Positions 2,521 through 5,683 of a stretch of DNA of 6,093 nt are shown here, piece after piece (position 1 is the stretch's first letter; every line of letters starts with the position of its first letter). The notes below the pieces were generated by a model that saw only the letters and a list, made by a program, of their open reading frames with translations, was not told where the DNA came from and did not search any database. A program made the translations under genes and the position numbers. The stretch lies in IMG/VR virus record IMGVR_UViG_2695420380_000008, one strand, 5' to 3'. The DNA comes from a virus. Taxonomy: Duplodnaviria; Heunggongvirae; Uroviricota; Caudoviricetes.

Positions 2521-2597
2521 CTTTCAAATGTCCATGTCTGCTATTCGCCTCGCGGTACAGCTTTGCGAAGCGTACAAGAATTGAAGCAGTTTTTACG

Positions 2598-4076: not shown

Positions 4077-4364
4077 TCAATCCTGCTCAAGATTGTAGAT
4101 GAGTTTATTCTTCAGCAAAAGCAGAAAACCAGCCTTAAAACCAATCTCTTTCAAAACCCGTAATGATGTGACAAATTCGTCCTCACGCAAAATAAAACCG
4201 TCCGTCAGAAGTCCATTACAAAAATAAAATAACACAGCACCGCTCTTCCTTTGTTGAGATTGCAAACATCTAATGCGGCAATGGCTGACAATCGCTCCAT
4301 TCTCAACGCGCACAGCATAGAGGCCATTTTCACTAAAAATTTCACGCAATTCTTCGATTTTCAT
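4077..4364 (-). CDS. hypothetical small prophage protein, 95 aa
   Basis: ORF with GGAAGGA SD-like sequence about 9 nt upstream of ATG 4364: MKIEELREIFSENGLYAVRVENGAIVSHCRIRCLQ... Occupies the slot between the hok terminator and the DUF1367 gene. No family recognised. Confidence 0.45.
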   Translation of the reverse strand: MKIEELREIFSENGLYAVRVENGAIVSHCRIRCLQSQQRKSGAVLFYFCNGLLTDGFILREDEFVTSLRVLKEIGFKAGFLLLLKNKLIYNLEQD

Positions 4365-4445
4365 CTTCAGAATCCTTCCAGATAAATAGCTCTCCCCTGT
4401 TCGGGGTCCATCCCTCTTCTCCCTGCGCGCTACTTAAGTGAGTCG

Positions 4446-4473
4446 ATTCTATCTGCGAAGGTGCGCGAATCAA
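4446..4473 (-). promoter_or_regulatory. candidate sigma70 promoter for the small ORF / DUF1367 / DUF1364 / Q operon
   Basis: Minus-strand TTGATT (-35, complement of 4468-4473), 16-nt spacer, TAGAAT (-10, complement of 4446-4451), about 80 nt upstream of ATG 4364 and just 3' of the hok terminator. Hexamer match only. Confidence 0.3.
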
Positions 4474-4493
4474 ATTCACCGGAAATAAACAAC

Positions 4494-4536
4494 AAAAAAC
4501 CCGCCGAAACGCTGAGAGATCACAGCGATGGGCGGG
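4494..4536 (-). terminator. intrinsic terminator at the 3' end of the hok transcript
   Basis: Minus-strand RNA CCCGCC-cau-CGCUG-ugaucucu-CAGCG-uuuc-GGCGGG followed by UUUUUU: outer stem 4500-4505/4531-4536, inner stem 4510-4514/4523-4527, U-run from the complement of A4494-A4499. Confidence 0.6.
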
Positions 4537-4541
4537 TTAAG

Positions 4542-4557
4542 TGCGGGTGCGTTGAGG
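4542..4557 (-). promoter_or_regulatory. candidate fbi-like 3' element of hok mRNA, complementary to the 5' end of the transcript
   Basis: Plus-strand tgcgggtgcgttgagg (4542-4557) is the inverted repeat of cctcaagcacccgca (4928-4942), 15 of 16 positions with a one-nucleotide bulge. Both lie inside the predicted hok transcript. Confidence 0.5.
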
Positions 4558-4613
4558 ATGCCTGACACATCAGAGGTGGGCGGGGATGGGATCAGCTCCC
4601 CGCCCGGTCACTC

Positions 4614-4769
4614 TTACTTCCTGGATTCGTAGTCTACGAAGACAGCGACCTCCGTCTGGCCGGTTCGGATTCGTACCTCACAGAGGTCTTTCCTCGTTAC
4701 CAGTGCCGTCACTATGACGGTTAAACAGATGACGATCAGGGCGATTAACATCGCCTTTTGCTGCTTCAT
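4614..4769 (-). CDS. hok: Hok/Gef family type I toxin (small membrane toxin), 51 aa
   Basis: ATG 4769..4767 with AAGGAG SD 9 nt upstream; MKQQKAMLIALIVICLTVIVTALVTRKDLCEVRIRTGQTEVAVFVDYESRK. Hydrophobic TMD followed by the conserved LVTRKDLCEV.IRTGQTEVAVF core of HokC/HokD-type toxins. Confidence 0.85.
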   Translation of the reverse strand: MKQQKAMLIALIVICLTVIVTALVTRKDLCEVRIRTGQTEVAVFVDYESRK

Positions 4770-4826
4770 AGCCTGCTTCTCCTTGCCTTTCGGCATGTAA
4801 GAGGCTAACCTACATGTGCAAAGCAT
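4614..4826 (-). CDS. mok: mok-like reading frame: in-frame N-terminal extension of hok, 70 aa
   Basis: Upstream in-frame ATG at 4826 gives MLCTCRLASYMPKGKEKQA-MKQQK..., the same pattern as chromosomal mokC/hokC (ML.TCR...K.KEK.AMKQ.K) as I recall it. Confidence 0.5.
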   Translation of the reverse strand: MLCTCRLASYMPKGKEKQAMKQQKAMLIALIVICLTVIVTALVTRKDLCEVRIRTGQTEVAVFVDYESRK

Positions 4827-4888
4827 GAAATTGGCCTCAGATTAATGTTAAGCGTCTTGCCGGACGCGTAATGTTAACTGGGGCTTTT
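4818..4888 (+). ncRNA. sok: candidate Sok-like antisense RNA covering the mok start codon and leader
   Basis: Plus-strand TTGCCT (4783-4788), 17-nt spacer, TAACCT (4806-4811), inside the mok 5' coding region in antisense. Downstream, gcctcag (4834-4840) pairs with ctggggc (4878-4884) enclosing an inner hairpin gcgtc/gacgc (4852-4856/4863-4867), followed by TTTT (4885-4888). Boundaries are approximate. Confidence 0.3.
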
Positions 4889-4927
4889 CTCTATCTGCCT
4901 TTTGGTGTTCATGCCTGAAGCAGATAG

Positions 4928-4942
4928 CCTCAAGCACCCGCA
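4928..4942 (-). promoter_or_regulatory. candidate tac-like 5' element of hok mRNA, pairing partner of 4542-4557
   Basis: See 4542-4557. Lies immediately downstream of the predicted hok transcription start. Confidence 0.5.
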
Positions 4943-4945
4943 GTC

Positions 4946-4975
4946 ATTCTACTTACCTCGCCAATATGAAATCAA
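4946..4975 (-). promoter_or_regulatory. candidate sigma70 promoter of the hok/mok transcript
   Basis: Minus-strand TTGATT (-35, complement of 4970-4975), 18-nt spacer, TAGAAT (-10, complement of 4946-4951). Predicted +1 near 4939, at the start of the tac-like element and about 110 nt upstream of the mok ATG. Confidence 0.4.
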
Positions 4976-4996
4976 TCAGAAAGGTGCCCCATAAAA

Positions 4997-5683
4997 TCAC
5001 TCCTTCTCTTCTTTACCGTAGTGGAGTTGACCAATTTTGATAAGAGGGCGTCCCTGAGATTTGCGGTGTAGATTGGTATCGCGCAGAGAATACACACAGC
5101 CACAATATTCCTGCTGATAGAATTTTTCGCGCTTGCTGATTTCAATCATACGGGACGAGCCGCCCTGCTTGCGCCAGTTATAATCCCAGTACACCATGCC
5201 CGGATAATGCGCGACGGCTCGCCGCCCACAGTCGTTAACCTGCTGCATATTTTTCCAGCGTGAAATGCCCAGTGAACTGCTGATCACACTGAAACCATTT
5301 TCAGCGGCGTACAGCGCTGTCCGCTCAAAACGCATGTCAAAACACATGGTGCAACGGATCCCTCGTTCGGGCTCCCATTCCATTCCTTTGGCTCGTTCAA
5401 ACCAGTTGTCTGTGTCGTAATCAGCATCAATAAACGGCACGCCGTGTTGTTCAGCAAAGCGAATATTCTCATCCTTACGAATTAAATACTCTTTCTGAGG
5501 ATGAATGTTCGGGTTGTAGAAAAAGATGGTGTAGTCGATTCCCGAGGCCTGAAGCGCCTCCATCACCTCACCGGAACATGGAGCACAGCAAGAGTGCAGT
5601 AGTAGTTTGTTTGCCCCGTTTGGGAGCTCCAATTTGGGCCGTTTGAAATCAGCAACTGTCATAAATATGTTTATTGGGGTCAT
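4997..5683 (-). CDS. queH: QueH-like epoxyqueuosine reductase (DUF208 family), 228 aa; start uncertain (ATG 5683 or 5662)
   Basis: [72 protein letters not shown]...[36 protein letters not shown]...[29 protein letters not shown] and YCGCVYS are the hallmark motifs of DUF208/QueH as I recall them. Neither candidate start has a clear SD. Confidence 0.7.

Follow-up and report, generated by a model that had tools for sequence, protein, structure and literature searches.

The window analysed here, a 6,093-nucleotide (nt) stretch of viral DNA (Caudoviricetes; record IMGVR_UViG_2695420380_000008), very probably contains an intact type I toxin-antitoxin module, hok/mok/sok, of the hokW/hokD clade, located in the nin-like region of a lambdoid prophage and most likely operating by the canonical mechanism. 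The original prediction, made from the sequence alone, had proposed a complete hok/mok/sok module at this locus and had named sok without giving it coordinates; all elements are indeed present, no more than a few bases off the proposed positions, and sok is now placed on the plus strand, opposite the hok/mok transcript (Table 1). The sequence elements of the module, the complementarity between them and their conservation among relatives are direct observations and are presented first.

Toxin and mok reading frames

A hidden Markov model search bore out the proposed 51-amino-acid (aa) Hok/Gef toxin. The product matches the Pfam family HOK_GEF (PF01848) over the full model (positions 1-42) with an E value of 4.3e-23 and 81 bits, against a cut-off of 22. 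It shares 50 of 51 residues with the HokW-type toxin of the 933W-type Stx2 phage I, 46 of 51 with HokD and 24 of 51 with R1 Hok. The toxin occupies the last 51 codons of a 70-aa mok open reading frame (ORF), beginning at the ATG at 4769, so that the in-frame mok-like extension described originally is also found. This mok layout is that of phage ORFs annotated 'MokW protein' and of the in-frame ORF that lies 5' of R1-type hok. The mok Shine-Dalgarno (SD) sequence GAGG stands 8 nt 5' of the mok AUG and is invariant in the 72 aligned homologues described below.

The module has close and numerous relatives. A 601-bp segment around it is 100% identical to two RefSeq Escherichia coli chromosomes, FDAARGOS_943 and FDAARGOS_944, where the gene is labelled 'type I toxin-antitoxin system toxin HokD' (WP_014532198.1) and sok is left unannotated; the identical toxin is also encoded in one Shigella flexneri genome. 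Of 5426 complete E. coli genomes, 4713 contain relatives of ~90-93% identity, at a median of 2 places per genome and a maximum of 9-10. Still other relatives are carried by plasmids and by 79 deposited phage genomes, under the labels HokD, gef, MokW and host-killing protein. The statement that such modules are known from a few chromosomal or prophage loci therefore does not hold, and the exact sequence is already present in RefSeq as hokD.

Transcript and its ends

A promoter scan recovered the promoter proposed upstream of the leader as TTGATT-18-TAGAAT, listing 2 promoter-like sites in 750 bp where 0.5 would be expected. The start predicted from the -10 element is G4939, which is also the base at which the match to the Rfam model RF01794 begins. 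Measured from this start, the leader extends 113 nt to the mok AUG, in agreement with the earlier estimate of about 110 nt, and 170 nt to the hok AUG. The RF01794 match covers the 5' 176 nt of the mRNA (4939 to 4764, minus strand) with 117 bits, a gathering score of 59 and an E value of 5e-27 across the full model (positions 1-157). The model stops at the hok AUG and hence represents the hok leader, with sok contained in the complement of that leader. Placement of sok on the minus strand, as a minus-strand match to a 'sok' family would suggest, was rejected on the same ground. Automated RF01794 annotation at 4764-4939 would put 'sok' on the wrong strand and at about twice its real length.

Folding of the RNA revealed both 3' hairpins of the original prediction. 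The first, given there as 4577-4604, is found at 4605-4578 and likely represents the hairpin that protects the 3' end of the processed mRNA; 4 of its pairs are kept across homologues, 3 of them with two-sided changes (alignment columns 346-349 with 361-364). The second, proposed as a terminator at 4494-4536, corresponds to a hairpin at 4538-4498 followed by a U tract that ends at 4494, with a folding energy of -24.7 kcal/mol. A simple terminator scan of 4350-5100 detected no terminator because a 23-nt nested hairpin is inserted in the loop, and the structure is seen only by folding. The insertion of ~23 nt maps to 4508-4530 (minus strand), and its motif occurs in 7 of 132 collected loci. At the equivalent place, hokD-type loci carry a plain AACCCGC-TTCG-GCGGGTT terminator hairpin.

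Alternative RNA pairings and their conservation

The predicted 446-nt transcript folds with -189.6 kcal/mol and a z score of -8.4, and none of 100 shuffled sequences was as stable. Inspection of the full-length fold indicates that the 5' element tac pairs with the 3' element fbi and that the mok SD at nt 102-105 is sequestered by nt 56-62 of the ucb box. Shorter RNAs adopt other structures. In folds of 40-50-nt nascent RNA, and in RNA cut before fbi, tac forms a metastable hairpin with nt 20-29, whereas in folds of 60-100-nt RNA it pairs with ucb nt 54-60; removal of fbi leads the 5' end to refold locally. The complementarities for tac/fbi, the metastable hairpin, ucb/SD-mok, tac/ucb and SD-mok/dcb are all present, and the same elements and alternative pairings have been described for R1 hok mRNA (PMC9841398).

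Conservation was assessed with 132 related loci gathered from species-representative genomes and viral contigs, and 72 distinct transcripts spanning tac to fbi were aligned using MAFFT. For tac/fbi and ucb/SD, 96% of alignment cells are paired, versus 28-51% when the partner is slid, and 38 cells are changed on both sides, versus 7.6 in shuffles. The metastable hairpin is paired in 98% of cells and has 3 pairs in which both sides have changed. At tac position 4, U is replaced by C jointly with both alternative partners, namely fbi column 405 and hairpin column 28, and coupled covariation of this kind is expected if tac uses both partners. The tac element is invariant in 49 E. coli-type homologues, and compensatory changes appear in more distant ones. 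Those between fbi and tac convert U-A to C-G and G-C to A-U, and a direct duplex search added two more compensated variants, in which GAGA faces UCUC and GAAG faces CUUC. For Photorhabdus-type sequences MAFFT misaligned fbi, which produced an excess of 'not paired' cells in columns 396-401; by direct duplex search their fbi pairs with tac through compensatory changes. The tac/ucb and SD/dcb pairings are kept in 99.9% of cells, and SD/dcb complementarity is present in all 72 homologues.

The Sok antisense RNA

At the level of sequence, the locus contains a predicted antisense sok gene with its own promoter and terminator hairpin, overlapping the mok start. Two oligonucleotides of the hokW-sokW study, the hokW probe and a primer that changes TAACCT to GAGCCG to make a promoter-less mutant, allowed the sokW -35 and -10 hexamers to be deduced, and the hexamers of the window locus agree with them; the sokW probe of that study spans the equivalent segment of the locus (PMC8621323). 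The predicted start lies near 4817-4819. In the predicted RNA, an unpaired 5' tail faces the mok start, and a long hairpin (4833-4885) and then CUUUUCUC follow; the molecule folds with -32.7 kcal/mol and a z score of -5.0.

The 49 E. coli-type homologues vary more in the segment in which the Sok tail faces the mok start (~4810-4832, mRNA nt 108-130) than anywhere else in the leader. Mean column entropy reaches 0.73 bits at nt 108-130 versus 0-0.02 in tac, ucb and SD-mok. The variation takes the form of discrete alleles, that of the window being present in 6 of the 49, and is suggestive of Sok/target specificity having diversified among co-resident copies.

Table 1. Features of the hok/mok/sok module and the adjacent queH gene in the window; mRNA positions count from the predicted start at 4939.
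Feature	Position	Strand	Description	Basis
hok/mok promoter	4946-4975	-	-35 TTGATT, 18-nt spacer, -10 TAGAAT	promoter scan
Predicted full-length hok mRNA	4494-4939	-	446 nt	
tac	4928-4939	-	mRNA nt 1-12, GGGUGCUUGAGG	pairs with fbi in minimum-energy fold
tac partner in metastable co-transcriptional hairpin	4911-4920	-	mRNA nt 20-29	
ucb / anti-SD box	4878-4886	-	mRNA nt 54-62	
mok Shine-Dalgarno	4835-4838	-	GAGG, mRNA nt 102-105	read from sequence
mok ORF	4614-4826	-	70 aa, in the hok frame, stop codon common to both	
dcb box	4801-4805	-	mRNA nt 135-139, GCCUC	complementary to mok SD
hok Shine-Dalgarno	4779-4784	-	AAGGAG	
hok toxin ORF	4614-4769	-	51 aa, MKQQKAMLIALIVICLTVIVTALVTRKDLCEVRIRTGQTEVAVFVDYESRK	Pfam PF01848
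Post-stop hairpin	4578-4605	-	G+C-rich, just past the hok stop	RNA fold
fbi	4545-4557	-	mRNA nt 383-395, CCUCAACGCACCC	pairs with tac
Terminator-like branched hairpin	4494-4538	-	8-bp G+C stem, nested hairpin in loop, U tract	RNA fold
sok promoter	4783-4811	+	-35 TTGCCT (4783-4788), 17-nt spacer, -10 TAACCT (4806-4811)	
Predicted Sok RNA	4817-4891	+	~73-76 nt	predicted ends
QueH (epoxyqueuosine reductase)	4997-5683	-	full-length	Pfam E 2e-65

Proposed mechanism

We infer transcription, processing, toxicity and biological role of the window copy from its hokW-sokW and R1 relatives, for which Hok toxicity, neutralization by Sok, and 3' processing or RNase III cleavage have been reported (hokW-sokW, PMC8621323; R1 hok/sok, PMC9841398). 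By analogy with them, a 446-nt mRNA would be made from the hok promoter, and during transcription its 5' tac would be held in the local metastable hairpin, leaving the nascent RNA silent. In the finished RNA, the locked tac/fbi pairing together with masking of the mok ribosome-binding site by ucb would prevent both translation and Sok binding. Slow 3' trimming to the post-stop hairpin would then remove fbi, upon which tac would switch to ucb and expose the mok site. As long as the short, unstable plus-strand Sok is present, it would pair across the mok start and the duplex would be destroyed. Once Sok is depleted, translation of mok and coupled translation of hok would follow, and Hok would damage the inner membrane.

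Prophage induction would be the likeliest trigger. In the hokW-sokW system of prophage Sp5, HokW is toxic and is counteracted by sokW RNA, partly via RNase III and Hfq; mitomycin C brings sokW down and HokW up, a response that depends on RecA, and deletion of hokW-sokW halves phage release (PMC8621323). By the same analogy, Sok would fall and Hok would rise in the window prophage, and lysis and phage release would be helped. Help with lysis at induction is the favoured role because hokW-sokW provides the only direct evidence for this clade.

The reading frame itself offers a further observation. The Tyr47 codon and the following base form UACG at 4631-4628 (minus strand), a tetranucleotide that none of the 72 aligned homologues alters; TACG also stands at the matching Tyr codon of R1-type hok. 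The mature peptide contains only Cys15 and Cys30, and editing at the Tyr47 codon could give mature Hok another cysteine. An improbable extension of these ideas holds that the copies of the clade, up to 9-10 in a genome, are kept from cross-talk by the Sok-tail/mok-start specificity alleles and reach full toxicity through A-to-I editing of the Tyr47 UACG. If so, the prophage copy would be a lysis helper gated by induction and growth state, and not a simple addiction module. Each of the two ideas builds on published observations, and neither proposes a new kind of system.

Points against and alternative explanations

Several points weigh against assigning an intact, canonically working module. 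Expression and toxicity of the window copy are predicted from relatives, and chromosomal hokA, hokB and hokC were reported to show neither post-segregational killing nor a response to rifampicin, as summarized in bioRxiv 10.1101/2025.08.07.668861. The NCBIfam Hok models match the toxin below threshold (E 5e-15, 55 bits versus a curated cut-off of 73). The sok promoter was not listed by a generic promoter scan, its 7 of 12 consensus matches falling below the threshold, and the terminator is atypical in its branched loop. When the tac/ucb switch was sought by folding 3'-truncated mRNA, what formed in RNA ending before fbi was the metastable hairpin; tac/ucb appears only in the 60-100-nt folds, so that the switch rests on complementarity and conservation and not on minimum-energy prediction. 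The tac/ucb and SD/dcb pairings are invariant, and covariation therefore neither supports nor refutes them. Finally, the FDAARGOS_943 prophage with the 100% identical module has insertion sequence (IS) elements in and around it, including an IS2 within its terminase gene, so that a role tied to induction may be moot in that prophage.

The alternative that survives best concerns the role of the module and not its integrity. Defence or stabilization, instead of help with lysis, could be the main function if Sok were depleted when an infecting phage shuts off host transcription or when the element is lost and Hok then killed the cell; prophage stabilization and abortive infection are both possible roles of this type. 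We consider this a possible, though not the probable, main role. Both PMC8621323 and bioRxiv 10.1101/2025.08.07.668861 cite plasmid hok/sok as acting in plasmid maintenance and phage defence, and the latter reports hok genes to be about four-fold enriched in prophages. The same survey, however, saw no enrichment of hok near defence systems, and in the clade's only direct experiment hokW-sokW contributed to lysis and to the release of phage following mitomycin C (PMC8621323). The two roles are not mutually exclusive.

Read-through of the phage early-right operon might also be the main source of Hok, in which case the promoter match at 4975-4946 would be incidental. In favour, every neighbouring gene has the orientation of hok, and the gap from the QueH stop (4997) to the -35 measures only 21 nt and contains no terminator. 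The -35 belongs to sequence found only at the QueH junction; similarity with other hok loci sets in just upstream of the -10. Such an origin of the mRNA is nonetheless unlikely. Relatives of the hokW/hokD type keep the -10 TAGAAT, the sequence downstream of it and the spacing between this -10 and the conserved 5' end GGGUGCUUGAGG; the Rfam model starts exactly at 4939, and tac should function best at a free 5' end, by analogy with R1.

Least probable of the three, and very unlikely in our view, is that the module is a structurally intact yet physiologically silent relic carried passively in a decaying prophage. The lack of post-segregational killing reported for hokA, hokB and hokC, the IS2 and other IS elements of the near-identical FDAARGOS_943 prophage, and the non-consensus sok promoter and terminator would all fit such a relic. 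Against it, the examined regulatory elements and ORFs carry no disabling change and relatives have the very same regulatory boxes; the toxin is HokW-type at all but one residue, and the HokW of Sp5, an inducible prophage, is both toxic and regulated (PMC8621323). The decayed K-12 copy, moreover, looks different, having lost its leader. Outright decay of the window locus is rejected because its elements and ORFs lack disabling changes, unlike that leaderless copy. The earlier suggestion that the module may be functional rather than decayed is thus reasonable, given the near-identity to HokW-type toxin and the match of the sok hexamers to those of sokW.

Neighbourhood of the module

The intact module is embedded among same-strand genes, with QueH upstream and a 95-aa ORF, DUF1367, YbcO and a DUF1133/Q-type antiterminator downstream. 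Pfam matches to QueH, DUF1367, YbcO and DUF1133/antiterminator-Q substantiate the flanking QueH, nin-like and Q genes originally described. A second promoter-like site, TTGATT-16-TAGAAT at 4473-4446 (minus strand), has the hexamers of the hok promoter, lies just past the hok terminator and is positioned to drive the 95-aa ORF (4364-4077) and the DUF1367, YbcO and Q genes. QueH here lies in a prophage nin-like region, next to hok and ~2.6 kb from a tRNA cluster. A close QueH homologue (96.5%) was present in just one of 50,697 deposited phage genomes, that of Escherichia phage HannyBb; it is annotated only as hypothetical and is likewise located just upstream of a mokW-like gene.

The tRNA cluster is part of a tandem duplication (691-1549 and 1649-2507) with a period of 958 bp and copies of ~859 bp each. 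The duplicated cluster holds four tRNAs, Gly-TCC, Thr-TGT, Arg-TCT and a CAT-anticodon tRNA (Met according to ARAGORN, Ile according to RefSeq). At the 99-bp junction, runs of 31 N at 1550-1580 and 1618-1648 surround a 37-nt island, which had no match among the loci compared. In the near-identical prophage of FDAARGOS_943 the tRNA-cluster unit occurs once, and the duplication could be real or an artefact of assembly or masking. That prophage also carries an IS1 (~767 bp) at the point corresponding to window positions 2546-2555, between the tRNA cluster and the DUF1133/Q gene, where the window has no IS1. The overlap of ~9-10 bp between the two BLAST blocks at this point would fit an IS1 target-site duplication.

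Comparison with known systems

The module belongs to a kind that is already known and very common, and the differences of the window copy from its relatives are all minor. Its closest characterized relative is hokW-sokW of Stx2 prophage Sp5, of the 933W type (Takada et al. 2021, PMC8621323), whose Sp5 primers agree with the toxin ORF of Stx2 phage I at both ends. Each system has an in-frame mok of 70 aa, with 3 residues differing between them, identical sok -35 and -10 elements and a lambdoid prophage setting, and the loci are ~92% identical over ~425 bp. The toxins differ in one residue near the C terminus (…ESRK in the window, …ESEK in HokW). Further differences reside in the Sok-tail/mok-start allele, one base of the sok promoter spacer, the larger loop of the post-stop hairpin in the window copy and the terminator, as well as in the upstream neighbour QueH and the -35 drawn from unique sequence in the window.

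The hokD (relF) gene of the K-12 prophage Qin, to which the locus had originally been compared, falls in the same toxin clade, has a conserved 3' untranslated region with fbi, and lies in a lambdoid prophage upstream of a Q-type antiterminator gene, as in the window. That comparison stands for the toxin but not for the rest of the module, as the K-12 copy has lost the promoter, tac, ucb, the mok start and sok, all of which the window copy keeps. The K-12 gene follows directly after relBE and aligns only from mRNA position ~157 onward. The window locus does not have this leaderless architecture; its layout is that of hokW-sokW, which is the proper comparator.

In contrast to the prophage context of the window copy, the mechanistic prototype, R1 hok/sok (parB), is plasmid-borne. 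It has the same tac, metastable hairpin, ucb, SD-mok, dcb and in-frame mok, the same antisense Sok across the mok start, and likewise fbi and a 3' hairpin. The hokW/hokD clade forms tac/fbi with a one-base bulge, whereas the best 3' partner found for tac in the R1-type sequence is split by a long loop. The correct label for the window locus is hok/mok/sok of the hokW type, sok included, rather than simply hokD. That is to say, it adds one more intact prophage copy to those known, usable for comparing Sok specificity or the lysis-helper role proposed for hokW-sokW.

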